Shown: positions 33,972 through 46,903 of the stretch, piece by piece
Numbering within the stretch: the first letter of the stretch is position 1
How the letters are laid out: the number at the start of each line of letters is the position of its first letter
NCBI GenBank assembly: GCA_041651455.1
Contig: JBAZJG010000006.1
Coordinates: 25,409 to 89,408, forward strand
DNA from: Candidatus Omnitrophota bacterium
GTDB taxonomy: Bacteria; Omnitrophota; Gorgyraeia; Pluralincolimonadales; Pluralincolimonadaceae
Length of the DNA: 64,000 nt
Direction of reading: 5' to 3'
The notes under the pieces: generated by a model
What the model was told of the DNA's origin: nothing
Database searches by the model: none
The model's input: the letters and a program-made list of their open reading frames with translations, nothing else
Made by a program: the position numbers and the translations under genes

Positions 33972-34058
33972 GCCGGGGTGTTGGAACTGGCATACAAGTC
34001 AGTCTCAAAAACTGATGTCCGTAAGGGCATGAGGGTTCAACTCCCTCCCCCGGCACCA
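33972..34058 (+). tRNA. tRNA-Leu (anticodon CAA), class II with long variable arm
   Basis: 87 nt: GCCGGGGTGTTGGAACTGGCATACAAGTCAGTCTCAAAAACTGATGTCCGTAAGGGCATGAGGGTTCAACTCCCTCCCCCGGCACCA. 7-bp acceptor, 3-bp D-stem (class II), anticodon loop CTCAAAA, T-loop TTCAACT, encoded CCA. Lies 7 nt after the SPFH stop. Confidence 0.8.
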
Positions 34059-36316
34059 TTTAACCCGCCTGATATTTTATTAGGCGGGTTTTGGCCTTTA
34101 TCATCCGTGCCGCCGCTGTCCTTCCTGATCTTCTCCTCCATCTTCGCAATCTTCTCTTTTAATTCGACCATCCTTAATTCCCTGTTGATCGCGACCTTAT
34201 TCATTATCTCGAACTCGGCGACCTTCCTCTTCAGTTCATCCTCCATCTTCATGCGTTCGGTTATATCGTGGACGATGAATTGCAGCAGCCTCTTTTTCCC
34301 GAACAGTATAGAGCTGCTGAAGATCTCCACATCGCGGACCTGCCCGCCTGCGATCTGGTGGCGGGCTTTTATATATTTCATGGCCCCGGAGTCGACGAAA
34401 GGCTTCACCTTCAGGGCCTCCTTTCCCGGGACGGGATCCAGCTGCATCGCGTGCATATCGCACAGTTTTTCGCGTGGATAACCGTAAAATTCCGCCGCGG
34501 AGTGGTTGGCGTCTATTATGCGGTCGTCCTCGGGATCTATAAGCAGCATTACGGAAGAATTATCCGTGAATTGTTTCCTGTAGGATTCTTCGCTTGCCCT
34601 GAGTTCTTCCGTGCGCTGCAACACCTGCTCTTCCAGCGCGGCACGGCGGCCCGACAAAAAGATTATGAACAACACCGACAACGCGGTAAACGCAATACCG
34701 GTTGCGCTTGTCAGCCACCCTGCCCATTCCGGATAAAGCATCCTGAATCCGGCTCCCTCACGGGCCAGCACGGCATACGTCTTGCCGAAAGCAAAAACAG
34801 GCATTACGATCGCTGCCTTGGGATCGGGGTTCGCGTGTCCATGGGACATGGACGCAAGAAGCATATCCGGCGAACCCTCCTTCATCTCGTACAGGTCGAT
34901 GAGCACAGAAGAATGTTCCGCAAACGGTTCATCGGATATATATTTTTTAAGCAGCGTTTCGATGACCACGGAAGCCGAGGAAAATCCGCGAAGGTTCTTG
35001 CTACCGTTACCATCGTAGACCGGACGAAACACGACAATCCCCCTCTTGCCGTCCTTTGTATTTACCAGGGTAACGGCGTCCGTGCCCGTTACCAGCCCTG
35101 TCCGTGCCGCGCTCTCGAACGCTTTCCTGCGGAACGGATCTGAGCCGACATCAAACCCCAAAGCGCGATCGTTCCCGGAAAGGGGTTCTACATAACATAT
35201 CGGGTAATATTCGCTCTTGTTCTCAGCAGGAACGGGCTCGCCTGCGGCATCATGCTGCCACAATGCAAAACCTGCCTGCCCTCCGGACCTGATCTGCCGG
35301 ACAAAAACCTCCCGGTCCTTCTCGGGCACCCTGGGTATCCATGCCCATGCCTGCACGACATAATTCCTTCTCAGGAAACCGGCATATTCGTTAAATTCTT
35401 TAAGGTCAAGCACCGGACGGCTCTCTATGAATCGGGAGAAACCCTCAAGATAATCATCGCGAATGTCTGTTATTGCCTGCGTAAAACCGAAGGCTTTTGA
35501 TGCCGCCAACTGGCTGAACGCATCCTTGTGATCATATGTTTCATTGATGTGCGCTACATATGCCGCGGTCAATGTAATGGCCAGGCCGAACGCAGCGGCA
35601 ATGATCGCATCCGCATTACGCAGTATGCTTCCGCGTCCTTCCGGAGCGGTCCGGGAACGCTTAAAGACCAAGATGGAAGAGCCCGCCAGCACCAGTAATA
35701 ATAGTAGGGTAATAATGACCGGGAATATCGAAGCGCGCGCGATATCCGCTTTCCAGCCCTTCGCCTCGAAATCTATGCCTATAATGATCGCGGTCTTTCC
35801 CGTTTGCGGGTCAAGGACAGGCGCGAACGCGCTGATAAACGTGCCGAACTCGTCCGTGTATGGCCCCAAAACCAGCGGTGAACCGGAAGCAAAAACACGC
35901 AGCAGTTCGGACGGAGGCCTTTCGTAGGTTTCTCCCGGCACAGAAGACCGCGGGTCTTTCACGTCGATATTTTCAGGGCCGAAAAAGATCTTTCCTTCCC
36001 GCATCATCATGCTGTATATTCCGAGGAAACGGTCTTCCGTTCCGAATGAGGATTTAACCGCGGGGCTGTAAGCGATCATCTGGGAACGCAATCTCTGGAA
36101 AACGTGGCTATCTTTATCAGCGAGGGAAAATGTCAGGGCGTTCGCCTGTTCAATGCTGACCTGCCGGCCTATCGCCACTGCCTGCAACATCAACCGGTTA
36201 CGCATATACCTATCGGTATGTGCCGCCGTCCATTGCGTGAGGGCGGTTCCTGCAATGATAATGACAGCCGAACAGGCTGCGATAAATAACCAGGCAGGCT
36301 TCTTCTTCATGGACAA
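34037..36316 (-). CDS. 4-TM sensor protein with two periplasmic domains (second is CHASE-like) and a cytoplasmic PAS plus coiled-coil, no kinase or other output domain
   Basis: 759 aa. TM at about aa 9-29, 207-228, 247-266 and 523-545. CHASE-like hallmark YYPICYVEP. PAS (SVMLLIDPEDDRIIDANHSAAEFYGYPREKL ... LLQFIVHDITERMK). No H-box, ATPase, GGDEF or other effector domain. Last ~22 codons lie antisense to tRNA-Leu and its terminator. Confidence 0.65.
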   Translation of the reverse strand: MSMKKKPAWLFIAACSAVIIIAGTALTQWTAAHTDRYMRNRLMLQAVAIGRQVSIEQANALTFSLADKDSHVFQRLRSQMIAYSPAVKSSFGTEDRFLGIYSMMMREGKIFFGPENIDVKDPRSSVPGETYERPPSELLRVFASGSPLVLGPYTDEFGTFISAFAPVLDPQTGKTAIIIGIDFEAKGWKADIARASIFPVIITLLLLLVLAGSSILVFKRSRTAPEGRGSILRNADAIIAAAFGLAITLTAAYVAHINETYDHKDAFSQLAASKAFGFTQAITDIRDDYLEGFSRFIESRPVLDLKEFNEYAGFLRRNYVVQAWAWIPRVPEKDREVFVRQIRSGGQAGFALWQHDAAGEPVPAENKSEYYPICYVEPLSGNDRALGFDVGSDPFRRKAFESAARTGLVTGTDAVTLVNTKDGKRGIVVFRPVYDGNGSKNLRGFSSASVVIETLLKKYISDEPFAEHSSVLIDLYEMKEGSPDMLLASMSHGHANPDPKAAIVMPVFAFGKTYAVLAREGAGFRMLYPEWAGWLTSATGIAFTALSVLFIIFLSGRRAALEEQVLQRTEELRASEESYRKQFTDNSSVMLLIDPEDDRIIDANHSAAEFYGYPREKLCDMHAMQLDPVPGKEALKVKPFVDSGAMKYIKARHQIAGGQVRDVEIFSSSILFGKKRLLQFIVHDITERMKMEDELKRKVAEFEIMNKVAINRELRMVELKEKIAKMEEKIRKDSGGTDDKGQNPPNKISGGLNGAGGGS
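34063..34094 (+). terminator. Rho-independent terminator after tRNA-Leu
   Basis: acccgcct-(gatattttatt)-aggcgggt followed by TTTTGG. The stem and loop are also translated as the C-terminal tail of the minus-strand sensor CDS. Confidence 0.6.
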
Positions 36317-36320
36317 CCTC

Positions 36321-38312
36321 CTAAACCCTTATAGGAAGTATGACTACCGGTATCCCCTCGTGGTAGAACTTGCGCTGCATTGAAAAGACGGTGTAGTTAT
36401 GGAGCAGCCTGGTTAGGAACGTCTCTTTCGGGAAGACGATCTGGCCGCCAAAGAAAACGGCCTGGGGGTACTTCTCTGTCAGCTTAAGCGCGAGGACCGA
36501 GGCCTCCTGCACCACGTCGGTGCCAAGGGCGAATATTCCTTCGGCATGATAACCGTGTTCCCCGACGAATTTCACATACCTGTCTATCTCGCTTTTCGCA
36601 TGGGCTTCCAGCTTATCAAGCTCTTCCGCCCCTTTAAAATTGCCGGCGTCTATTACGCCTATCTGCAGGAAAACAAAATTCTTGAATGAATCCCCGAACA
36701 ACCTGAATATATTGAACAGGGTGTGTAATCCCGTCCCGTTGAAACCGTTGACGAGCAGGACCGCCGTCTTCGCCTCAGGGTCGAACTCGCCCTTCTCCTT
36801 CTTTGTTATGCCCGGGATATTCTCCGCACTTGAAAAACCGGCCGCCATGACAAGGCTGTCAAGGCGCTTCAGCAGTTTCGCGGTGTTATCGTAATGCCTC
36901 TTTATCCCGATGACAAAGAGGACCAGCGTGCCGGTGACGAAAAGCGTTATCCACCCGCCTTCGTTGAATTTTATTATAGTTACCGACAACAATATGAATA
37001 CCGTCAGCGCCAGGCCGATACCGTTGACCGCAAGCTTCCTGCGCCAGTGGTCCAGCCTTTTGCGGTTGCTCCACCAGTACCGCACCATGCCCATCTGCGA
37101 GAGAAGGAACGTTATGAAAACGTTAATACTATAAAGGACGACGAGCAGCGCCACAGAACCGTGTGTCGCGAGCATCATTATCAGGGCGGCGACTCCCATT
37201 ATCATCACGCCGTTCTGCGTGACAAAACGGTCGCTCAACGTAGCGAACCTCGACGGGACCCACCTGTCGAGCGCCATGTTCGCGAGTATCCTCGGGCCGC
37301 CGACAAAACCCGTCTGCGCGGCGACGAACAACAACAGCGCTTCGGAGACCAGCGTTATCAGGATGAACGGCACTCCCCAGGCCTTGCTCCACGGGGCGGT
37401 CATGCTCTCCAGCAATACGGCATTTATCGTCTTGCCTTCCTGAAACTGTACCCTGTAGAGGATGTACGCCAGCATTAGGCCAAGGACCGTTACGGCAAGT
37501 GATATCGCCATATAATTCATCGTGCGCTTGGCCGTCTGGACCCTCGGCTCGCGCAGCATAGGCAGCGAATTGCTCACGGCCTCGATACCGGTATAGGTAC
37601 CGGCACCCATGCTGTATGCCCTCATCACGAGCAGCACCATGCCCATCATCCCCAATTCCGCCGACGTCGTATAAAGGTCCGCCTTCGTCGCCGACACGAC
37701 CTCCGGGAAATTCATCATATGGGTCACGAGCGCATAGAGGATAAGGAACGCGTGGGTTACCACGAAGGTCAGGAATATGGGCATGAGGACCGAGACCGAC
37801 TCCTTTATGCCCCTGAGGTTCAGGACTATAAGGAAAAACACCACCGCGGAAGCGAAGACTAGCTTATACGGAAGATAGCCGGCCGGAAGGAAGCTGAACA
37901 GCGCGTCCGCGCCGCTCGCGACGGAAACGGTGATAGTAAGGACATAATCTATAAGGAGCGCGCATCCCGATACCATACCGGTTCGCGGCGAAAGGAGCTT
38001 GCTTGCTACAAGGTATCCGCCGCCGCCCGACGGGAATACCTCTATAAGCTGCGAATAGCTCGCGCTTATCACGAAGATCGTTATAGCGGTCGCCAGCGCG
38101 ACGAAGATCCCGAGGTACATATGGCCCTGCAAGGCGACAAAGGCCTCCTGCGGGCCGTAGCATGAGGAAGAAAGCCCGTCCGCGCCGATCCCTATCCACG
38201 CGAAAAAAGCTATAAGCGATATCTTGTGGAAGAGCTGGGTATCATGCGGGTCGTGCGCGCCGCCGATCACTATATCCTTCAGCCTCTTTCCAATGCTTGA
38301 TTTAGGTGCCAT
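36321..38312 (-). CDS. APC-superfamily transporter resembling the KimA (YdaO) K+/H+ symporter, with C-terminal cytoplasmic domain
   Basis: 663 aa. Long matches to B. subtilis KimA: FPSGGGGYLVASKLL vs YPQGGGAYIVSKENL, LLIDYVLTITVSVASGADAL vs LLVDYILTVAVSISAGTDAI, LNLRGIKESVSVL vs LNLRGLSESASIL, TGIEAVSNSLPMLREPRVQTAKRT vs TGVEAISNAIPAFKNPPARNAART. Confidence 0.55.
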   Translation of the reverse strand: MAPKSSIGKRLKDIVIGGAHDPHDTQLFHKISLIAFFAWIGIGADGLSSSCYGPQEAFVALQGHMYLGIFVALATAITIFVISASYSQLIEVFPSGGGGYLVASKLLSPRTGMVSGCALLIDYVLTITVSVASGADALFSFLPAGYLPYKLVFASAVVFFLIVLNLRGIKESVSVLMPIFLTFVVTHAFLILYALVTHMMNFPEVVSATKADLYTTSAELGMMGMVLLVMRAYSMGAGTYTGIEAVSNSLPMLREPRVQTAKRTMNYMAISLAVTVLGLMLAYILYRVQFQEGKTINAVLLESMTAPWSKAWGVPFILITLVSEALLLFVAAQTGFVGGPRILANMALDRWVPSRFATLSDRFVTQNGVMIMGVAALIMMLATHGSVALLVVLYSINVFITFLLSQMGMVRYWWSNRKRLDHWRRKLAVNGIGLALTVFILLSVTIIKFNEGGWITLFVTGTLVLFVIGIKRHYDNTAKLLKRLDSLVMAAGFSSAENIPGITKKEKGEFDPEAKTAVLLVNGFNGTGLHTLFNIFRLFGDSFKNFVFLQIGVIDAGNFKGAEELDKLEAHAKSEIDRYVKFVGEHGYHAEGIFALGTDVVQEASVLALKLTEKYPQAVFFGGQIVFPKETFLTRLLHNYTVFSMQRKFYHEGIPVVILPIRV

Positions 38313-38315
38313 GCA

Positions 38316-39539
38316 TTAGCTCCTCACTGACCTGATATCATACCACATATAGGCAAATATAGGAACGGCAAGGAGCTCTATGCCTATAGTTATCCCGATC
38401 AAAAGCGGGAGGGAGATATCATACAGTATGCCCATGAGCGAGGCGCCGATGAACATCGCCACCCCGTAGACCGTATTAAAGATGCCGTATCCGGTCCCCC
38501 TCTTTTTTATCGGGGTGAGGTCCGCGATCGCCGACTTCATTATCGTCTCGTGTATGCCCATCACGACGCCCCATAGCAGGATGCTTACCGCGACGAGGGC
38601 TATATTAGCCGAGAACGCGAACAGCGGTATCACTGCCGAAAGGACCGGGATAGTGATCAGTGTCAGCAGGCCCGCCCTCTCGTTCCCGCTCCTGTGCTTC
38701 ATGACATCATAGGCCTTGCCTATGGCAAGGGCGGCTATGCCGTCGACCGCCATCGCTATCGAGTAGAAGAGCGGTATCTGCGCGTCGCTGAGTATTCCTT
38801 TAGCCTTAAAATGGTACCCGAGCAGCGCGAAATTCACGAAACCTACCGTGGCGACCAGCGTGAACGCCGTATATATCCAGAATACCTTCGATAATTTATC
38901 CGGCTCGGGCGGCCTGTTGAGCGCGACTTCCAGCTTCTCGGGGTCCGGCACGCGCAGGTATGCGAAAAATACGCATGCCATTACCAGAAGGAACGGGATC
39001 CAGAAGAGCCTGTAGCCCGCCTGGTATTTCTCGATATCGGTCTGGGTATTCCCGACCATCATGAAAAGCGCCATGAATATCAACGGGCCGGTCAACGCGC
39101 CGAGCTGGTCCATGAATTCCGAAAGGCCGAAACCGAAACCCGTCCCTACCTGTTTTGACGCCTGGGATACGATCGTATCGCGCGCGGGAGCCCTGAGGGC
39201 CTTACCGAAACGCTCGAGGACGATAAAGAGCGCGGCGACCTGCCAAACCCCGGTCAGCGACAGCATGGGGACGGTAGCGAGCATTCCGTACCCTATGAAC
39301 GTGAAGAGCCAGTATGCCCTTGTCTTGTCGGCAAAATATCCCGACAGCAGGCGAATAGCATAACCGATGAATTCCCCGAGTCCTGCGATGAAACCGACCG
39401 TCGCTGCGCTGACGCCGAGCGTCTTCAGGTACGGGCCGTTCACGCTGCGGGCGCCTTCGTAAACCACGTCTCCGAAAAGGCTCACGAGCCCGAAAAGGAT
39501 GATAAGGTTCATTGCGGCTTTTTTATTGCTATCCGTCAT
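38316..39539 (-). CDS. Major facilitator superfamily transporter
   Basis: 407 aa. 12 predicted TM helices with MFS-type loop motifs. Confidence 0.7.
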   Translation of the reverse strand: MTDSNKKAAMNLIILFGLVSLFGDVVYEGARSVNGPYLKTLGVSAATVGFIAGLGEFIGYAIRLLSGYFADKTRAYWLFTFIGYGMLATVPMLSLTGVWQVAALFIVLERFGKALRAPARDTIVSQASKQVGTGFGFGLSEFMDQLGALTGPLIFMALFMMVGNTQTDIEKYQAGYRLFWIPFLLVMACVFFAYLRVPDPEKLEVALNRPPEPDKLSKVFWIYTAFTLVATVGFVNFALLGYHFKAKGILSDAQIPLFYSIAMAVDGIAALAIGKAYDVMKHRSGNERAGLLTLITIPVLSAVIPLFAFSANIALVAVSILLWGVVMGIHETIMKSAIADLTPIKKRGTGYGIFNTVYGVAMFIGASLMGILYDISLPLLIGITIGIELLAVPIFAYMWYDIRSVRS

Positions 39540-40324
39540 TGCCTCTCCGCTTTCTCAAGAACATCGGCCCTTCCGCCTTCAAGGGCGGCCGAATAAAACT
39601 CCTTATCGCCCGGCAAAAAGGCCGAAAAACGCGGCGTATGATCGATCTCGACCGTCGCGCGCCCTGCCGTCCGGAAGTCCAGCAGGTGCCCTCCCGTATT
39701 CCTTCCCTCCGTGATAAAATGCATATGGTATCCCGGAAGGTTGAATCCACCGGCATAACCGGGGCACCTGAAACCCACGACGGTTCCTTTTATATCCTTT
39801 AACTCAAATACCGTCTGTCCTTTTACCGCCTCAGATAACGGGACATACGGCTTCTTCTGCGGCGGGACGCTTCTCATTTTCACATAATCGAAACGGCCTT
39901 CGATCTTTACGGCATAGAATATATTCTTCGTAGGCAGGAGCGTATCGATGTATTCCTGGAGCTGCTTCATATCCATCGGCTTGTCGAGGGAAACGAGCTT
40001 GTCTATCTCGAAGAATGTCACCACTGAGAACGGGGTCTTCGCGGTATCGGGAACGGGATAAGCGAGCCCGTCGGACTTCACCTGGAAGAATTCGCCGTCT
40101 ATCGCCACCATCTCCCCGTCGAGGGCGTTGAACGTCCCTATGCCGAAATCCCCGTGTTTCTTCAGCTCACTAAAAGTCGTTTCGCCGTCGTAGATGCCTC
40201 CGGAGAGTGCGTTGAGAGTGGAGACCTGGAAGAGGACGTCCTTCTCTCCGCCTGAGCCCGAACAACCCGCCGCCGCGACGCAAACGGCGGCTATCGCCGA
40301 TAACAGGAACGGTATTTTATTCAT
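39536..40324 (-). CDS. alsD: Alpha-acetolactate decarboxylase with lipoprotein signal peptide
   Basis: 262 aa. Lipobox AAGC. Core FQVSTLNALSGGIYDGETTFSELKKHGDFGIGTFNALDGEMVAIDGEFFQ matches ALDC signature regions. Confidence 0.75.
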   Translation of the reverse strand: MNKIPFLLSAIAAVCVAAAGCSGSGGEKDVLFQVSTLNALSGGIYDGETTFSELKKHGDFGIGTFNALDGEMVAIDGEFFQVKSDGLAYPVPDTAKTPFSVVTFFEIDKLVSLDKPMDMKQLQEYIDTLLPTKNIFYAVKIEGRFDYVKMRSVPPQKKPYVPLSEAVKGQTVFELKDIKGTVVGFRCPGYAGGFNLPGYHMHFITEGRNTGGHLLDFRTAGRATVEIDHTPRFSAFLPGDKEFYSAALEGGRADVLEKAERQ

Positions 40325-40629
40325 GCGATCAGTTCGAACGCCTTCGTGACTTCCATGCCGGCGGTTATCCCGAGTTCCGCGGCCTTCTTATTCACTTTCG
40401 ATATCCTGCGGTTAGGGAAACGTTCGAGCGTGCCTATAGGGTTGTCCGGCGTGCTCTCGACCATCGCCGCGGCCGCGTTGAACCTGTCTATCGCCTCGAG
40501 GTCGAAGACGCCGCAGACGAGGAAACCCTTCTTCCCGGTCACCATCAATATGCTGAACCCCGGCCATTTGACCTGGACCCCTTCCACAAGGCCGTTCTTC
40601 GTCTCGTATGACCTGGTTACCGTTTCCAT
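40321..40629 (-). CDS. Small conserved protein, possibly DUF1805/YunC-like
   Basis: 102 aa. Family recalled from memory, not verified. Overlaps both neighbouring genes. Confidence 0.3.
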   Translation of the reverse strand: METVTRSYETKNGLVEGVQVKWPGFSILMVTGKKGFLVCGVFDLEAIDRFNAAAAMVESTPDNPIGTLERFPNRRISKVNKKAAELGITAGMEVTKAFELIA

Positions 40630-41096
40630 CTTGACGATACCTCCTTCTCATGCTCGTGGCGGTGTTTCGCGTCCATCGAGATTATCAAGGTCCGTATACC
40701 CTCGCTCTCCGATACCCATTTGAGCCCGAGTATAAGCGCCGCTACCAGGAACTGCGCGAAATATTTCGGCGCGGTGAACGACAGCGTGAACGCCATTATC
40801 GTGGCGGCAAGCCAGATATAACTCTGCATCCTCTTCTTCCCCGTATCCATCTTCGCAAGGCCTTTCGCTTTTTCCCTTAATTTTACCGGCGTATCCGCGA
40901 GCCCGCCTCCCGCGAGCATGCTTTCGGCCGTATGCGCCGCCCTGATATTCTCAAGGCATGCCGCGCAGGACGAAGCGTGCTCTTCAAGGCGGTCCTTCTC
41001 CCACGGGGCCATTGCGCCGGCTATATACCTGGCCAGCACCGCCTCATCTGGGCATGTTTCCTTTGCTTCGCGAAGGCTGCCTATGCTCTTTTCCAT
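40617..41096 (-). CDS. Zinc-binding anti-sigma factor (HxxxCxxC) with one TM helix
   Basis: 159 aa. ZAS motif HASSCAAC preceded by a Cys (CPDEAV). TM segment YIWLAATIMAFTLSF. Immediately downstream of the ECF sigma gene, 2-nt gap. Confidence 0.6.
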   Translation of the reverse strand: MEKSIGSLREAKETCPDEAVLARYIAGAMAPWEKDRLEEHASSCAACLENIRAAHTAESMLAGGGLADTPVKLREKAKGLAKMDTGKKRMQSYIWLAATIMAFTLSFTAPKYFAQFLVAALILGLKWVSESEGIRTLIISMDAKHRHEHEKEVSSRWKR

Positions 41097-41097
41097 A

Positions 41098-41721
41098 TTA
41101 TAGTAGACGCTTCTTTTCGAGTTTTTCTTTCAGGTTCTTTTTCGCCCGCGCGACCGTCGTGGAGACCGTGTTTACCGGGAGCTCCAGGGCTGCGGCTATC
41201 TCCGCATGCTTCATCCCGTGCAGCAGGCTCATCCCGGCAACCATCCTCTCCTTCGGATTGAGCCCTTCTATCGCCGAAGCCAGTTCCGCCCGGGCCTCGT
41301 TCAGCTGCGCCTGCCTGTCCGGGCCGTCCGCGCCGGAAGGCAGGACCTCCTCGAGCGTCCTCCCGTCATCGTCTTTGCATATCTGTTCATATAAAGACAC
41401 GGAAGACGGAGGGCTCTGCCTCCTCGCCCTCCTGAAATATTCTATGGCCGCGTTGCCCGCAACCATCGCGAGCCATCCCGCGACCTTACCGGGGTCCCTG
41501 AGCTGGCTTAACTTGCCGCCTGCCCATAAAGCGACAAAGACATCCTGGTGGATGTCGTTGATGTCTTCCTCGCTATGATCATATCCGTAACGCCTGAGCC
41601 GGTCGCGTATGGCCCAGTAGACCACCTTCGAATACCTTTCGACGAACGCATCCCACGACTTCCTGTCCTTGTTTATGCAACCGAGCACAAGCTCTTCGGG
41701 ATGATCGTTACGGTCCATCAC
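41098..41721 (-). CDS. ECF (sigma-70 family, group 4) RNA polymerase sigma factor
   Basis: 207 aa. Region 2 (DINDIHQDVFVALW, VAGWLAMVAGNAAIEYFRRARR) and region 4 HTH (MSLLHGMKHAEIAAALELPVNTVSTTVARAKKNLKEKL). Confidence 0.8.
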   Translation of the reverse strand: MMDRNDHPEELVLGCINKDRKSWDAFVERYSKVVYWAIRDRLRRYGYDHSEEDINDIHQDVFVALWAGGKLSQLRDPGKVAGWLAMVAGNAAIEYFRRARRQSPPSSVSLYEQICKDDDGRTLEEVLPSGADGPDRQAQLNEARAELASAIEGLNPKERMVAGMSLLHGMKHAEIAAALELPVNTVSTTVARAKKNLKEKLEKKRLL

Positions 41722-42332
41722 TCTTTCGGCATTATCTTTTCTTCGAAGGCCTTGGCCGTCACCGGCATCGTATCCCTGAATATCTTGAGCAGGGCCTTCG
41801 CATATTCGCGTATCTCCGGCTGTGCCCCCTTATCGAGGCGCAGCTTCAGGAAGTTCATCAGGGAACGCGCATTGACGGTCCAGTAATAAAGGGTGTATAT
41901 GGAAAGCGGCAGTACGCCGCGCGCCTGTTCGCGTTTTATCCCTGACGATACCATCGATTCATAGGCGTCGAAAGCGTCGTTTATCGACTTCTTGTATTTC
42001 AGGAGCGCTTCTCCCGACAGGCTCCCGGGCGTGTAGAAATCCCTTTTCGCGAGGCAATAGCGCAGCGACATCTCGTTATACGTGCCGATGCGGTGGCGTA
42101 TCCACTGGCGCGCGACGAAAATCGGGCATTTGACGTCGAAACGAAAATAGGCATGCTCGAAAGGCGTGCCGTGGTCTTTTATTATCAGGTGCCTTATCAG
42201 CTTAGCATCCGCATCTGCACCTTGCGGCTCGCTCATGTAGCAGCGGCGCGCGCTTTCTATGACGGCCTTGTCCCCGCCCATCGAATCGACGAGCGCGACG
42301 TAACCGTTATCGAGGACTTTTATCTGCTGCAT
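41718..42332 (-). CDS. thyX: FAD-dependent thymidylate synthase ThyX
   Basis: 204 aa. ThyX signature RHR...S (ARQWIRHRIGTYNEMSLRY). Overlaps the sigma factor start (ATGA). Confidence 0.85.
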   Translation of the reverse strand: MQQIKVLDNGYVALVDSMGGDKAVIESARRCYMSEPQGADADAKLIRHLIIKDHGTPFEHAYFRFDVKCPIFVARQWIRHRIGTYNEMSLRYCLAKRDFYTPGSLSGEALLKYKKSINDAFDAYESMVSSGIKREQARGVLPLSIYTLYYWTVNARSLMNFLKLRLDKGAQPEIREYAKALLKIFRDTMPVTAKAFEEKIMPKE

Positions 42333-42468
42333 CTTTCTTGGCTTTTTCTTTCTTCTCGTAGCATTCGGGGCAGTTATACATCGGCTTCGCCAGCGTCCTG
42401 TCGTAGCCGGCAGCCACGACGACCCTCTTTACTTCAGGGACTTCACGTCCGCAGGTATCGCATTTCAT
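42307..42468 (-). CDS. Unannotated small zinc-ribbon protein (53 aa, two CxxC pairs)
   Basis: Minus strand: ATG at 42468-42466, 7 nt after GGAGGAG. Encodes MKCDTCGREVPEVKRVVVAAGYDRTLAKPMYNCPECYEKKEKAKKDAADKSPR, stop TAA at 42309-42307. Overlaps the thyX start (42332) by about 25 nt in another frame. Too short for the ORF track. Confidence 0.5.
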   Translation of the reverse strand: MKCDTCGREVPEVKRVVVAAGYDRTLAKPMYNCPECYEKKEKAKKDAADKSPR

Positions 42469-42489
42469 CTGTTCTCCTCCGGTTTGATG

Positions 42490-42518
42490 ATTCTATCAAT
42501 ATGCGGCGCCTTTTTCAA
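42490..42518 (-). promoter_or_regulatory. Near-consensus sigma70 promoter for the zinc-ribbon/thyX/ECF-sigma operon
   Basis: Minus strand reads TTGAAA (42518-42513), 17-nt spacer, TAGAAT (42495-42490), then GGAGGAG and ATG at 42468. Confidence 0.55.
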
Positions 42519-42521
42519 CCG

Positions 42522-43349
42522 CTATTTAGGCCGGCGCGCGACAAAAGCCAGGAATACCGCTATTACTATTAACCCTATTATGACCATCATGACCGACGAG
42601 AAAGACAGCGCCAAGGCCGGGGCGGGTGCAGCGAAGACCGCTATGCCCCATTCGCTCGGGTCGGCGTAAACATTCTTCGTCCCGTACCAGGTAAACTGCA
42701 GTTCCCTCTTGTGCGTATCGGCGTCGTCCACCGAGATATCGAAATCTATCTTCCTGCCTACTTCGGGTTTGAACCCGCCGAGGGCCTTGAAGGGTATCTT
42801 CGACTCGATTATGTAGCCCTTGTCCCACCTTACCGAGGCGACCTCTATGCCGCCGACATAATCATCCCGGCGCCATACCCATTCTCCCGCCTTGATATCC
42901 TTTTCGTTGCCGGGGCTTATGCCGATCTGGTAGTCCTTCTTCCCGAAGAACATCCTCTTCGGGTCGGCCTTATCGTCGAGCCCGAGCATTATCTCTAACG
43001 CGTCGCCGTCCCAGATGTCCGGGCCCTCCTTGCTGTTGTCGAAAGGCACGTCATCGGTGACCTTAGCCGCCACATACAGAGCGTCGTCATCCCATAGCAT
43101 GTAGATATCGGCGCTGAGGTCTTCCTTGCCGGACCATACGTTATACATGAGTATTTCGTAGGATTGTTTGTCCATCCTTATGGTATAACCGGGGTATTTG
43201 CTAAGGTCGCAGTCGACCTTTACCGGTTTTGAGGCCTTATGGATGCGGACTTCGGGTTTCGGTAACGGCTTATCCTGCGCCTGGCACTGCTGGGGGGGAA
43301 CGGAAAATAAAAAAAGGGCTGCTGCCGCGAGCGGTAATAGCTTTTTCAT
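42522..43349 (-). CDS. CBM9-like carbohydrate-binding domain protein with signal peptide and C-terminal TM anchor
   Basis: 275 aa. CBM9-like core (DIYMLWDDDALYVAAKVTDDVPFDNSKEGPDIWDGDALEIMLGLD). C-terminal hydrophobic helix plus RRPK. Confidence 0.55.
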   Translation of the reverse strand: MKKLLPLAAAALFLFSVPPQQCQAQDKPLPKPEVRIHKASKPVKVDCDLSKYPGYTIRMDKQSYEILMYNVWSGKEDLSADIYMLWDDDALYVAAKVTDDVPFDNSKEGPDIWDGDALEIMLGLDDKADPKRMFFGKKDYQIGISPGNEKDIKAGEWVWRRDDYVGGIEVASVRWDKGYIIESKIPFKALGGFKPEVGRKIDFDISVDDADTHKRELQFTWYGTKNVYADPSEWGIAVFAAPAPALALSFSSVMMVIIGLIVIAVFLAFVARRPK

Positions 43350-43367
43350 CTGGACCTCCGGGATTTT

Positions 43368-45722
43368 CTATATTCTACCAGAAATCCTCTGGGGAATCCA
43401 GTGGGGATGTGCCTCGTCAAGCGGCTCACCGTTCACGAGGACCTTACCTTTCGAGACCCTGATATCATATTCCTTCCCGCGGAAGGAACGCTTCATCGCG
43501 AACCCGTCCCATGAAGAAGGGAGCCGCGGGTCCACCGTCAGGCCGTCGAGCGTCGCCCGGACACCGAGTATCCAGTCGGTAAAAGCACGGAACATCCACG
43601 CGGACGTCCCGGTAAGCCACGAATGGCTCCCGCGCCCGAATTGCGGGTGGTCGGGCCCGAAGAGGAACTGGCTGTAGACATACGGCTCGACCCTGTAGGT
43701 CTCCGCGCCCGCCCTTTTCGCGGCGACCGCAGGTAGCAGCTTGTGGTAATAGTCGAACGCCCTGTCCGCGCGGCCGAGCATCGCCTCGGCGATCACCGCC
43801 CAGGTATTAGCATGGCAGAATATCGCGCCGTTCTCCTTTATGCCCGCCGGATAGTTTATCAGGGAGCCGATATCGTCCGGGCCGCTCGTATAGGAGGGCC
43901 AGCATATCCTGATGCCGAGGTCCGTATCGAGGTACTTCTTGACGGCATCCATGCATCTGATGCCGCGCGCGCGGTCCGCAACACCGCTTAGCACCGCCCA
44001 GCTCTGCGTATTTATATGTATCTTCCCCTCCTCGCATTCCTTCGAGCCGACGGGCCGCCCGTCGTCGGTAAAAGCCCGTATATACCATTCGCCGTCCCAG
44101 GAGGTCTCGTTTATCCGTTTCTTCATGCCGTTGTATATCTTCGTGAAGTTTTTCGCGTCCCCGGTCTTCTCCATCTCTCCGGCAAGTTCGGCCATCTGCT
44201 TCGCGACATAGCAAAGGAACATCGCGACCCATACCGATTCGCCCCTGCCTTTCCTGTCTATGTCGTTAAGGCAGTCGTTCCAGTCCGCGTAGAACATCCT
44301 CGGCAGGCCGTGCGGCCCGCAATTCGCGAGCGTATAATTCACCGCGCGGACCATATGTTCGTATATCGTCCCGTCCGTCCCCTCGATATATGGCGACTTG
44401 TCCTCGAGTATGGAGTAATCGCCGGTCTCGCAGATATACGAGTATACGGCCGGGATGATCCAGAGATGGTCGTCGGAATATTTCTTCGGTTCGCCGGTCC
44501 CGACCGTCGGGTAGAAGAGATGGTACGCGTGCCCGTCCGCGTACATGTTCTTCGCGAGCAGTTTTATCTTCTCCTTCACCTGCGGCGCTATCGCGTGGAC
44601 GACGCCGAGAGTGTCCTGGCTCGTGTCCCTGAAGCCGATGCCGCGGCCGGTGCCGGTGTTGTACATGAGCGACGCGTAACGCGACCAGTCGAACGTGGTC
44701 CTCGACTGGTACTGGTTCCATATATTTATGTTCGCGTTGACCACGGGGTCCGGCGTCTCGACCCTCAGTTTCGACGTATATTCTTCCCAGTACCCTTTGA
44801 CGCGCTCCAGCTCATGCGCGACATGGCTCTCGTCCGAGTATTTCCGCAATATCCTGTCCGGGGTCAGCTTGTTCTCATACGCGTCGACGCCGAGGACGAC
44901 CGTTACCGCCTTCCGCTCCCCGGGCTTGAGCTCAAGGCGCGCCGAGAGCGCGCCGATAACATTCCCGCCGGTGACCTTTGAACCTTTGTGCCTGCCGGAC
45001 TTCATCGCTTCCGGGTTCGTCTCGCTGCGGTACCTGCCGATGAATGCCTCCCTCTCGCAGTCGTAGCCGCGTATCTCGAGGTTCGTGACCGCGAAGTACG
45101 CGCGCGAGAAGTTGCGCTTGAAGTACCCCTTCTTCTTATTGTAGAAGGAATAGTATATCGCCTTGTCGCGGCTGTCGTATTCGGCGACCGAGAAATAGTG
45201 GAGGTTCGGGTGGAACATGAACTCTTCCGACGCGTCGAAGAGCGCAAACTCCACGTAAGGCGTAACCGTTATAGACCGCGCCCGCTTGCCGGCGTTCGTT
45301 ACCTCCACGGACCATACTTCGAGGTTGTCGTCCAGCGGCACGAAATACGTGACCTCGCTGGTTATCTTTTCGTTCTCGGAGGATATCTTAGTATACCCGA
45401 GCCCGTGCCTGCACTCCCATGCGTCCGGAGCCCTGCAGACGGGCTGCCACCCGGAGGACCAGTATTCTCCCGTATCATCGTCCCTAAGGTATACGTACCT
45501 GCCGGGCCTGTCGAGGGGCACGTTGTTGTACCTGTACCTGGTTATGCGCTGGTACTTCGGGTCTTCGAAAAAACTGTATCCGCCGCCTGTCTGCGATATA
45601 AGCGCCGCATACCTGCCGTTGCAGAGGTAATTTATCCACGGCGTAGGGGTATCGAACCTGTTTATTATGAACTCCTTCCTGTCCCTCGAAAAACCGCCGT
45701 AATCCATATCGATGCCTTTCAT
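43368..45722 (-). CDS. Glycoside hydrolase family 94 (cellobiose/cellodextrin-type phosphorylase, formerly GT36)
   Basis: 784 aa. N-terminal beta-sandwich, (alpha/alpha)6 barrel, size and motif layout typical of GH94 (WINYLCNGRYAALISQTGGGYSF, YHLFYP, FCHANTWAV). Likely true start at the second ATG (45707). Confidence 0.7.
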   Translation of the reverse strand: MKGIDMDYGGFSRDRKEFIINRFDTPTPWINYLCNGRYAALISQTGGGYSFFEDPKYQRITRYRYNNVPLDRPGRYVYLRDDDTGEYWSSGWQPVCRAPDAWECRHGLGYTKISSENEKITSEVTYFVPLDDNLEVWSVEVTNAGKRARSITVTPYVEFALFDASEEFMFHPNLHYFSVAEYDSRDKAIYYSFYNKKKGYFKRNFSRAYFAVTNLEIRGYDCEREAFIGRYRSETNPEAMKSGRHKGSKVTGGNVIGALSARLELKPGERKAVTVVLGVDAYENKLTPDRILRKYSDESHVAHELERVKGYWEEYTSKLRVETPDPVVNANINIWNQYQSRTTFDWSRYASLMYNTGTGRGIGFRDTSQDTLGVVHAIAPQVKEKIKLLAKNMYADGHAYHLFYPTVGTGEPKKYSDDHLWIIPAVYSYICETGDYSILEDKSPYIEGTDGTIYEHMVRAVNYTLANCGPHGLPRMFYADWNDCLNDIDRKGRGESVWVAMFLCYVAKQMAELAGEMEKTGDAKNFTKIYNGMKKRINETSWDGEWYIRAFTDDGRPVGSKECEEGKIHINTQSWAVLSGVADRARGIRCMDAVKKYLDTDLGIRICWPSYTSGPDDIGSLINYPAGIKENGAIFCHANTWAVIAEAMLGRADRAFDYYHKLLPAVAAKRAGAETYRVEPYVYSQFLFGPDHPQFGRGSHSWLTGTSAWMFRAFTDWILGVRATLDGLTVDPRLPSSWDGFAMKRSFRGKEYDIRVSKGKVLVNGEPLDEAHPHWIPQRISGRI

Positions 45723-45726
45723 ATAT

Positions 45727-45739
45727 ACTGGTTGTATAC
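45727..45739. promoter_or_regulatory. Operator-like inverted repeat TGGT-N5-ACCA (site A) upstream of GH94
   Basis: actgg tt gtatacca at 45725-45739. Lies 3-20 nt upstream of the GH94 start codons and 25 nt downstream of the stop of the GntR/LacI-type regulator. Confidence 0.45.
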
Positions 45740-45763
45740 CATAGTTATCAAAAAAAATAACCT

Positions 45764-46903
45764 TTATTTCGGTTTCGCGCTCGATCCCCTTACAACGAGG
45801 TCGACGGGTATAACTTCTTTCGTCGCGATATTTATCCGCCCCTCGATCCTGTCTATTAGCTTCTTCAGCGCTATCGAGCCCATCTCCTCCTTCGGCACGT
45901 TAACGGTGGTCAGCGGGGGCGTAGAGAGCGCGGCCCATTCTATATTGTCGAAACCGACGATAGATATGTCGCGCGGTATCGAAAGGCCGCTCTTTTCGCG
46001 TATGGCTTTCATCGCGCCCATGGCCGCCTCGTCGTTGATCGCGAAGACCGCGGTAGGGAGAGGGTTCTTCTTCAATATCTTCTCCATCGCCTTATACCCT
46101 TCCTCGACCATGTAATAGCCTTCTATGACGAGGTTGTCGTCGTATTTGATCCCGGCCTCCTGGAGGGCCGCCTTATAACCCTCGAGCCTGCCTATCGACG
46201 CGGGCTGGTCCTGCAGCGGGGCGCGTATCATCGCGATACGTTTGTGGCCGAGGTCGGTAAGGTGCTTCACGGCCAGGTATCCGCCGTTCCTGTTGTCGGG
46301 TATGACCGAATCTATCGCGGGCTTCGAGATCTCGTTATCTACGAGGACGAGCGGGAATTTCTTGTCGTAGAGGCTCAGGACCGTCGTGCGGTCGAGCCCC
46401 CCTATGACGATGATGCCGTCTACGTTGTTCTCCATCGCCCATCTCGCGATATCGCGCTCATCCTTGACCGAGGTCACGAAATTGAACGAGAGCGTGCATC
46501 CCATCCTCAGGGCTTCCTTCTGCATCATCGAGAATATGCCGACGTAGTAAGGGCTCAATATGGGAGATTGCGAGGTCGGGTTGAGGCGCCTCAGGATACA
46601 CGCGACGTTCTTGCGCCTCGACTGGCGCTTCATCGATGAAAAGGCATGGGCTTTCTGCAGTCCTTCCGCGTCCGAGACGAACGTCCCGGTGCCGGGTACG
46701 GAATACAGAAAGCCCTCCCTTATCAATTGCGCGATGCCGCGCCTTAATGTGATGCGGTTGATCCCGTGCTCCTTGCTCAGGATGCGTTCCGAAGGTATCG
46801 GTTCCCCGGGCTTGAACTGGCCGGCCTGGACCTGCTTGCGCAGTATATCGGCGAATTGCTGGTAGAAGAACTTTCCGCTCGACTTGTCCACCTTCGGGCT
46901 CAC
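45764..46903 (-). CDS. Transcriptional regulator with GntR-type wHTH N-terminus and LacI/PBP-type sugar-binding C-terminal domain
   Basis: 379 aa. GntR HTH (FYQQFADILRKQVQAGQFKPGEPIPSERILSKEHGINRITLRRGIAQLIREGFLYSVPGTGTFV), then a periplasmic-binding-protein-like type 1 fold (DGIIVIGG, LVLVDN, IGFDNIEWAA). Confidence 0.75.
   Translation of the reverse strand: MSPKVDKSSGKFFYQQFADILRKQVQAGQFKPGEPIPSERILSKEHGINRITLRRGIAQLIREGFLYSVPGTGTFVSDAEGLQKAHAFSSMKRQSRRKNVACILRRLNPTSQSPILSPYYVGIFSMMQKEALRMGCTLSFNFVTSVKDERDIARWAMENNVDGIIVIGGLDRTTVLSLYDKKFPLVLVDNEISKPAIDSVIPDNRNGGYLAVKHLTDLGHKRIAMIRAPLQDQPASIGRLEGYKAALQEAGIKYDDNLVIEGYYMVEEGYKAMEKILKKNPLPTAVFAINDEAAMGAMKAIREKSGLSIPRDISIVGFDNIEWAALSTPPLTTVNVPKEEMGSIALKKLIDRIEGRINIATKEVIPVDLVVRGSSAKPK

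Follow-up and report, generated by a model that had tools for sequence, protein, structure and literature searches.

A strongly constrained four-cysteine mini-protein gene overlapping thyX in Candidatus Omnitrophota: a probable remote relative of the ClpX zinc-binding domain

The stretch analyzed here, hereafter the window, comprises 64,000 nucleotides of a Candidatus Omnitrophota genome (GenBank assembly GCA_041651455.1, contig JBAZJG010000006.1, positions 25,409 to 89,408), and carries a 53-codon open reading frame (ORF) with four cysteines, the 3′ end of which overlaps the beginning of thyX, a gene for thymidylate synthase. We call this ORF zr53, and its homologs in other genomes zr. Our analysis shows zr53 to be a real gene under strong constraint. 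Its family of stand-alone proteins is probably related, remotely, to the N-terminal zinc-binding domain (ZBD) of ClpX, and is placed outside PF06689 by the curated threshold of that Pfam family. The reading we lean toward, with rather more confidence than doubt, is that zr53 encodes a small Cys4 treble-clef protein that has its own promoter, is translationally coupled to thyX, and acts as a docking module for a housekeeping partner.

The ORF was pointed out in an earlier note made from the sequence alone, and our translation of the minus-strand frame (Table 1) is identical to the 53 residues quoted there, with CxxC pairs at residues 3–6 and 33–36. The note called the ORF unannotated, which does not hold: an identical protein from a Candidatus Omnitrophota metagenome-assembled genome (MAG) is deposited in GenBank (MFA5164824.1), labeled hypothetical, and the ORF track behind the note missed it only because its length is below the cutoff. 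A protein search recovers 63 clusters of close homologs (40–84 aa, 62–98% identity, E down to 7e-28), a profile search of 1.84 billion representatives returns 122 family matches that are nearly all stand-alone (41–127 aa), and a wider family profile reaches 486 clusters, none of them carrying a Pfam domain. Residues C3, C6, R15, Y22, C33, C36, and K40 are invariant in the family. IMG labels in the 90% cluster of zr53 read either "RPC12/RpoP" (COG1996) or "uncharacterized Zn finger protein", and literature on Omnitrophota and zinc, thyX and zinc ribbons, and DciA and zinc yielded no account of the family.

Scanning one genome per species gave 37 zr loci. Over codons 2–41, comparison of the window with these loci gives a mean proportion of synonymous differences (pS) of 0.78 and of nonsynonymous differences (pN) of 0.17 in the zr53 frame (ratio 0.23), against pN/pS-type ratios of 1.65 and 1.74 in the two shifted frames. 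Diversity at the first, second, and third codon positions is 0.21, 0.14, and 0.56, and within the thyX clade pN is 0.01–0.07 and pS 0.08–0.86. The earlier note had named loss of the reading frame in relatives as grounds for rejecting the gene; the frame is instead kept, with the excess of synonymous change confined to it. The core of zr53 is even better conserved than ThyX (e.g. 92% vs. 76% identity at locus L017). There is no second copy of zr53 in the 64-kb window.

Translational coupling to thyX, also proposed in the note, is supported by the comparison. Measured from the zr stop, the thyX start lies at −26 nt in the window and five other loci, at −14 nt in one, and at +1 to +6 nt in nine, and no GGAGG precedes it in the window or in any of the 15 linked relatives, where only purine-rich sequence is found. 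An overlap or a gap of few nucleotides, a weak or absent Shine–Dalgarno (SD) sequence on the second gene, and a conserved junction mark a translationally coupled pair, and zr53 and thyX show all three; the tight junction kept in 15 of 15 relatives supports coupling from zr53 to thyX by termination–reinitiation. Specifically, ribosomes ending zr53 would most likely re-initiate on thyX, and the strong ribosome-binding site of zr53 would set the level of ThyX translation. The variable C-terminal tail of zr53 is at the same time the initiation region of thyX. In all this zr53 resembles other coupled upstream cistrons of bacterial operons, with their overlap, a strong SD that only the leading gene has, and their conservation. 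Its mechanism would be an ordinary one, and zr53 differs from them as a conserved protein that is also found alone elsewhere.

The GGAGGAG SD and the TTGAAA-17-TAGAAT promoter that the note had placed ahead of the ATG are both present (Table 1). The 17-nt spacer ends in TGA and supplies an extended −10 TG at 42498–42497, the two hexamers match the consensus in 10 of 12 positions, and the −10 box ends 21 nt 5′ of the ATG. This is the top sigma-70-like site of a 10-kb scan, in which promoter-like sites overall occur at chance level (9 found vs. 7.4 expected); the pattern TTGAAA-N14-TGNTARAAT, with one mismatch allowed, occurs once in the 64-kb window, where 0.01 occurrences are expected. An Rfam scan of the region returns a tRNA only, and no riboswitch or other RNA.

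The promoter recurs among relatives. Counting the window, 11 of 16 thyX-linked loci have a TTGAAA or TTGCAA box, a 16–17-nt spacer, a TG, and a TAAAAT or TAGAAT box, located 21–30 nt 5′ of the ATG. The promoter is kept even beside differing upstream genes, and the zr SD reads GGAGG in 12 of the 16 and GAGG or AGGAG in the other four. A promoter module of ~38 nt (within window 42469–42521) is present in the window, in L001, and in more distant relatives, and is absent from four very close relatives (L002, L003, L004, and L008), in which only 15–20 nt separate the stop codon of the upstream CBM9 gene from the zr ATG. On sequence comparison, this module is a recent promoter presence/absence polymorphism.

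A different layout is seen where zr stands alone on its strand. For example, in 14 of 17 such loci scanned, all of them of the glycine-cleavage type described below and from Omnitrophota (L009, L011–L014, L016, L018, L024, L027, L030, and L034–L037), a −35 (TTGACT-type) and −10 (TAAnCT-type) pair ends 6–11 nt 5′ of the ATG and no SD is found, from which we predict leaderless zr mRNAs. As such, zr carries its own promoter signals in both layouts, leadered when linked to thyX and apparently leaderless when alone. Seven loci (L009, L010, L013, L014, L016, L018, and L027) also share a conserved motif, TAATATACGTT...TTTTCAAAGTCAA, ~40–90 nt upstream of zr in the divergent intergenic region; it probably serves as promoter for the pyruvoyl arginine decarboxylase gene, which runs the other way.

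AlphaFold2 (AF2) models of zr53 reach a mean predicted local distance difference test (pLDDT) score of 78 when built from 27 sequences and of 82.7 when built from 55. In these models a zinc knuckle is followed by a hairpin and then by a helix whose first residue is 34, next to C33, so that the second CxxC caps the helix. The earlier note described the protein as a zinc ribbon; the predicted fold is a ClpX-like treble clef and not a classical two-knuckle ribbon. One metal ion, most likely zinc, would be held by C3, C6, C33, and C36, within a predicted treble clef made of the knuckle, the beta hairpin, and the helix that begins at the second CxxC.

The relationship to ClpX emerges from profile comparison. 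Searches of Pfam and NCBIfam with zr53 and ~30 diverse family members give nothing over curated cutoffs, and sequence-profile searches of the PDB with the zr53 family give no significant match. Below threshold, the commonest Pfam match is zf-C4_ClpX (PF06689), found at E < 1 in 13 of 50 members (best E 0.014). Aligned with hhalign, the family profile matches the ZBD of Escherichia coli ClpX (1OVX residues 14–59, PDB-verified) with a probability of 92.5% (P 5e-7, score 33.3), and an alignment of four ClpX ZBD sequences with 94.5% (P 8e-8). By comparison, 200 shuffles of the ZBD with its cysteines fixed score 12.1 ± 2.5, with a maximum score of 22.2 and a maximum probability of 45.5%, and four other zinc-finger or Cys4 proteins taken as negative controls (TK1, DksA, rubredoxin, and CsfB, detailed below) reach probabilities of 1–53%, indicating that the probable remote homology seen by profile comparison extends beyond cysteine spacing. 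The two share the Cys4 pattern CxxCGK...EV(R/K)(K/R)hh...P.hYhC.EC, and the second CxxC of zr53 is predicted to open a helix, as that of ClpX does (PF06689; PDB 1OVX and 2DS5). They differ in that zr53 is stand-alone, has a helix that is basic and polar rather than hydrophobic, and spaces its CxxC pairs by 26 residues instead of the 18 of ClpX (pattern CxxC-x18/19-CxxC), owing to an 8-residue insertion, GYDRTLAK, in the hairpin. None of the 122 family representatives is listed at ClpX length (~420 aa), and the family is not the N-terminus of an AAA+ unfoldase. What emerges is a family of uncurated stand-alone proteins, typically 50–70 aa long, with a predicted helix much more basic than that of ClpX.

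The genomic contexts of zr bear on what such a protein might do. Most of the 37 genome loci come from MAGs labeled Candidatus Omnitrophota, many are labeled "uncultured Planctomycetia", and a few Armatimonadota or Actinomycetota. In 15 of them, the order of the window is kept (zr-thyX-ECF sigma-anti-sigma, ECF standing for extracytoplasmic function), usually followed by DUF1805, a major facilitator superfamily (MFS) transporter, and a permease. By contrast, zr stands alone on its strand in 16 loci, between a divergent pyruvoyl arginine decarboxylase gene (pdaD) and a convergent lplA-gcvPB-gcvPA-gcvH run (the glycine-cleavage type), four loci read mfd-zr-plsC, and two have other contexts. Synteny with thyX, which the earlier note had suggested as a check, is therefore borne out for part of the family and does not extend to the rest.

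More distant metagenome loci, scanned with a subfamily alignment and with neighbors identified by seed-based tblastn, add further arrangements. In 60 rpsP-type loci (among L058–L130; e.g. L088 421–6477), the order purD-tsaC-DUF1015-dciA-zr-rpsP-KH-rimM-trmD-rplS is strongly conserved, with dciA directly upstream of zr in 57 of the 60. Elsewhere zr overlaps aroK by 4 nt in the order tyrA-aroA-aroE-argS-zr-aroK-aroB (L131 3274–6852), and a 236-aa protein (P0127) is either a fusion of the zinc finger with shikimate kinase (zr-AroK) or a fused gene call. The gene is also found behind aspS, and behind a Se/S-carrier-like gene of PF11823 (formerly DUF3343), where 11 of the 15 loci with that neighbor have a 14-nt stop/start overlap. 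Loci of this last type include L041 (4775–5192), L051, L053–L057, L059, L060, L062, L075, and L108, several of which have glyA upstream and transglutaminase, DUF2064, and lipA genes downstream. One distant member lies on a phage-like contig (L044 4716–4898), among small genes and with a 5′–3′ exonuclease gene, as is typical of phages. No clpX is found in the window or in the loci of relatives that were examined.

The presence of zr in glycine-cleavage, mfd, rpsP, aroK, aspS, and Se/S-carrier contexts implies that the protein is not specific to thyX, and a ThyX-specific factor is unlikely because equally conserved orthologs sit in unrelated housekeeping neighborhoods. In the reading we prefer, the zr53 protein would instead act as a zinc-stabilized docking module, much as the ClpX domain does. 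It would bind some conserved part of the housekeeping machinery, by a protein tail or else by a surface that is acidic or made of nucleic acid; the zr53 promoter would at the same time feed the run of nine cistrons in which the gene lies.

Several observations weigh against this reading. Against PF06689 zr53 itself scores 13.9 bits (E 0.053), below the gathering threshold of 27 bits, and ClpX ZBD chains, while among the top PDB profile matches, are non-significant (E 0.15–0.9). A Foldseek search of the PDB and viral models retrieved no ClpX ZBD structure, with all matches at E > 0.1. The hydrophobic dimer-interface helix of ClpX, VDLCNDII, corresponds to the Lys/Glu-rich YEKKEKAKK of zr53, so that ClpX-like dimerization and peptide binding may be lost. 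The diverse neighborhoods could equally fit roles in RNA or the ribosome, in replication, or in one-carbon and lipoate metabolism. Both the transcription start site and the coupling are deduced from geometry and conservation. The promoter is missing from the four very close relatives that lack the ~38-nt module and from the more distant L028, and in all of these zr must be transcribed from farther upstream; with five of the 16 thyX-linked loci lacking it, a position as first cistron is not universal. Finally, no terminator was found between the zr53 promoter and the upstream CBM9 and GH94 genes on the same strand, and read-through transcripts are therefore also likely. The note's description of zr53 as the first cistron thus needs to be narrowed: the gene likely starts one class of transcripts, from its own promoter, but not exclusively.

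We consider it unlikely, though deserving of serious weight, that zr53 is instead a small protein binding RNA, the ribosome, or DNA, whose placement ahead of thyX merely exploits a strongly expressed housekeeping gene. Nucleic acid would then be contacted by the zinc knuckle and by the basic helix at the C-terminus, with its invariant K40 and a conserved R/K four residues later. The protein has a net charge of +4 and surface aromatics (Y22, Y31, and Y37), its core is more conserved than ThyX, and many of its neighbors belong to translation and replication (the dciA-zr-rpsP loci, argS or aspS upstream, and mfd upstream). The model weakly resembles small zinc proteins of the ribosome and the N-terminal domain of Lsr2, and a weak NCBIfam match to S26e (E 0.023) points the same way. 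However, the structural and family matches are all non-significant (E > 0.1), none of the 122 representatives is fused to an RNA- or DNA-binding domain, and the rpsP synteny may simply be the conserved gene order of one clade.

Quite unlikely, in our view, is a detached ClpX-ZBD paralog working in trans, either in regulated proteolysis or in sigma control. Such a protein could be a decoy or adaptor that captures tails recognized by ClpX, e.g. the cytoplasmic fragment of the co-encoded zinc-associated anti-sigma (ZAS) factor, or, in a sharper form, could supply a replacement in a host whose ClpX has lost its own zinc domain. Alternatively, it might inhibit a sigma factor as CsfB does. CsfB of Bacillus subtilis is a small stand-alone treble-clef anti-sigma factor with a fold like that of the ClpX N-terminal domain, and acts by protein binding (PMC5890618). 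CsfB/Gin (PDB 5N7Y) is a stand-alone zinc protein of ~50–60 aa, and zr53 is alike in size and shares its operon with a sigma factor. It differs in that there is no sequence relationship (hhalign probability 1%, PDB-verified sequence), that the zr53 operon already has a ZAS anti-sigma, and that orthologs occur with no sigma gene nearby. Were the detached paralog real, one-to-one coupling would link the ECF response and thymidylate synthesis to a single small regulator.

We regard as very doubtful a metal, redox, or sulfur role, in which zr53 would either carry Fe(Cys)4 in the manner of rubredoxin or work together with S/Se carriers. The enzymes served would be those of flavin or one-carbon/lipoate chemistry, e.g. 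ThyX, the glycine cleavage system, or LipA. Its recurrent neighbors would suit such clients: thyX in 16 loci including the window, lplA-gcvPB-gcvPA-gcvH in 16, and glyA, the Se/S-carrier gene, and zr in series with lipA downstream. The 14-nt overlap with the PF11823 gene is also suggestive, DUF3343 having been assigned a proposed role in selenium metabolism (PMC5322559), and the size and CxxCG...CPxC pattern of zr53 are reminiscent of rubredoxin. Yet rubredoxin aligns with an hhalign probability of only 5.5% and is absent among the Pfam matches listed (those of zr53 itself and the best 25 of 112 families), the long basic helix predicted for zr53 is unlike rubredoxin, zr lies on the opposite strand in the glycine-cleavage context, and the rpsP, aroK, and mfd contexts have no such link. 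Least of all do we credit a mainly translated leader, in which the act of translation and not the product would control thyX. The tight stop/start junction, the lack of an SD on thyX in all linked loci, and a variable tail that the initiation region of thyX may have shaped speak for such a leader; the idea is contradicted by strong and broad purifying selection on the peptide, by conservation of the zr protein where no thyX follows, and by retention of four cysteines, R15, Y22, and K40 across phyla, which a pure leader would not show.

Other families were compared with zr53 and rejected. DUF7569 matches three of 50 distant members (best E 3e-7), and zr53 itself scores 14.5 bits vs. a threshold of 27. 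The lasso, or zinc domain, of the thymidine kinase TK1 resembles zr53 in its two CxxC pairs 28–34 residues apart, in an Arg nine positions beyond the second Cys, and in its link to thymidylate metabolism; it aligns with an hhalign probability of 53% (P 1.4e-4, PDB-verified sequences) and gives many weak Foldseek matches to the zr53 model (E about 4). Only vertebrate TK1 has a sequence ending like zr53, and we treat the resemblance as coincidence. The C4 zinc finger of DksA/TraR scores 13.7 and 13.4 bits in NCBIfam vs. cutoffs of 96 and 59.7, and DksA has an hhalign probability of 14%. RpoP/RPC12-type zinc ribbons (COG1996), the source of one of the IMG labels, are similarly small with two CxxC pairs; by contrast, the zr53 model has a C-terminal helix in place of the second beta knuckle, no such chain is found at E ≤ 10 among PDB profiles, and none is among the nine Pfam matches of zr53 at E ≤ 1.

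Table 1. Features of the zr53 region (window coordinates).
Feature	Position	Strand	Details
zr53, 53-aa Cys4 zinc-finger mini-protein gene	42307..42468	−	Stop codon included; ATG at 42468
Sigma-70-type promoter (putative)	42490..42518	−	−35 TTGAAA 42518–42513; −10 TAGAAT 42495–42490
Shine–Dalgarno GGAGGAG	42474..42480	−	5 nt 5′ of zr53 ATG
zr53/thyX overlap, putative coupling junction	42307..42332	−	26 nt; thyX ATG at 42332, different frame
thyX, FAD-dependent thymidylate synthase	41718..42332	−	Pfam Thy1 E 2e-57; TIGR02170 E 3.3e-53
ECF sigma factor gene	41098..41721	−	Overlap with thyX stop 4 nt (GTG start) or 1 nt (next ATG)
Membrane anti-sigma gene, zf-HC2 (ZAS), HxxxCxxC	40617..41096	−	Pfam zf-HC2 25.1 bits vs. 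cutoff 22.2; junction +1
DUF1805 protein gene	40321..40629	−	Junction to anti-sigma −13 nt
Alpha-acetolactate decarboxylase gene	39536..40324	−	Junction to DUF1805 −4 nt
MFS transporter gene	38316..39539	−	Junction to acetolactate decarboxylase −4 nt
Amino-acid permease family gene	36321..38312	−	Junction to MFS +3 nt
CHASE-PAS sensor gene, final cistron of packed run	34037..36316	−	Junction to permease +4 nt
tRNA-Leu(CAA), convergent, bounds gene run	33972..34058	+	Antisense to last 22 nt of CHASE-PAS ORF
CBM9-like gene, upstream	42522..43349	−	53 nt to zr53, no terminator between

The run from zr53 to the CHASE-PAS sensor gene comprises nine cistrons in 8,432 nt, with every gap or overlap downstream of thyX at most 13 nt (Table 1). 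The out-of-frame overlap of zr53 with thyX agrees with the earlier note, as does the extent of its roughly 8.5-kb unit; the six genes it placed beyond the anti-sigma gene are in fact five. The alpha-acetolactate decarboxylase gene is present in L002, L004, and L008 and was not detected in the syntenic relatives L001, L006, L019–L021, and L025. In the sensor (759 aa), Pfam recognizes CHASE and PAS domains but neither a kinase nor any further output domain, and the protein may therefore be a truncated one that ends at the tRNA gene. On the other side of zr53, the same strand (42522–46903) encodes the CBM9-like protein, which has a C-terminal membrane anchor, and, upstream of it with gaps of 18 nt and 41 nt, a glycan phosphorylase of family GH94 and a regulator of GntR/LacI type, and the same-strand run thus reaches well past the proposed operon start.

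The mechanics of this operon, i.e. promoter, SD, and coupling by overlap, are ordinary, and the gene was already deposited as a hypothetical protein. New here is the recognition of an uncurated, widely scattered family of mini-proteins under very strong constraint, with a recurring and often overlapping placement in housekeeping operons and a likely ClpX-domain ancestry. Its 486 clusters have no Pfam, NCBIfam, or PDB entry, and small proteins of this kind are often missed or left "hypothetical"; here conservation of the core exceeds even that of the essential enzyme encoded next, and the gene sits in housekeeping operons of several phyla. The family is a useful small-protein lead that is unlikely to surprise specialists. 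The 38-nt promoter module, which some close relatives have and others lack, and the apparently leaderless clades offer natural contrasts for the rewiring of expression signals of small genes. A stand-alone relative of the substrate-recognition domain of ClpX, if that is what zr53 is, would be a new handle on proteolysis and sigma control in uncultured Omnitrophota.

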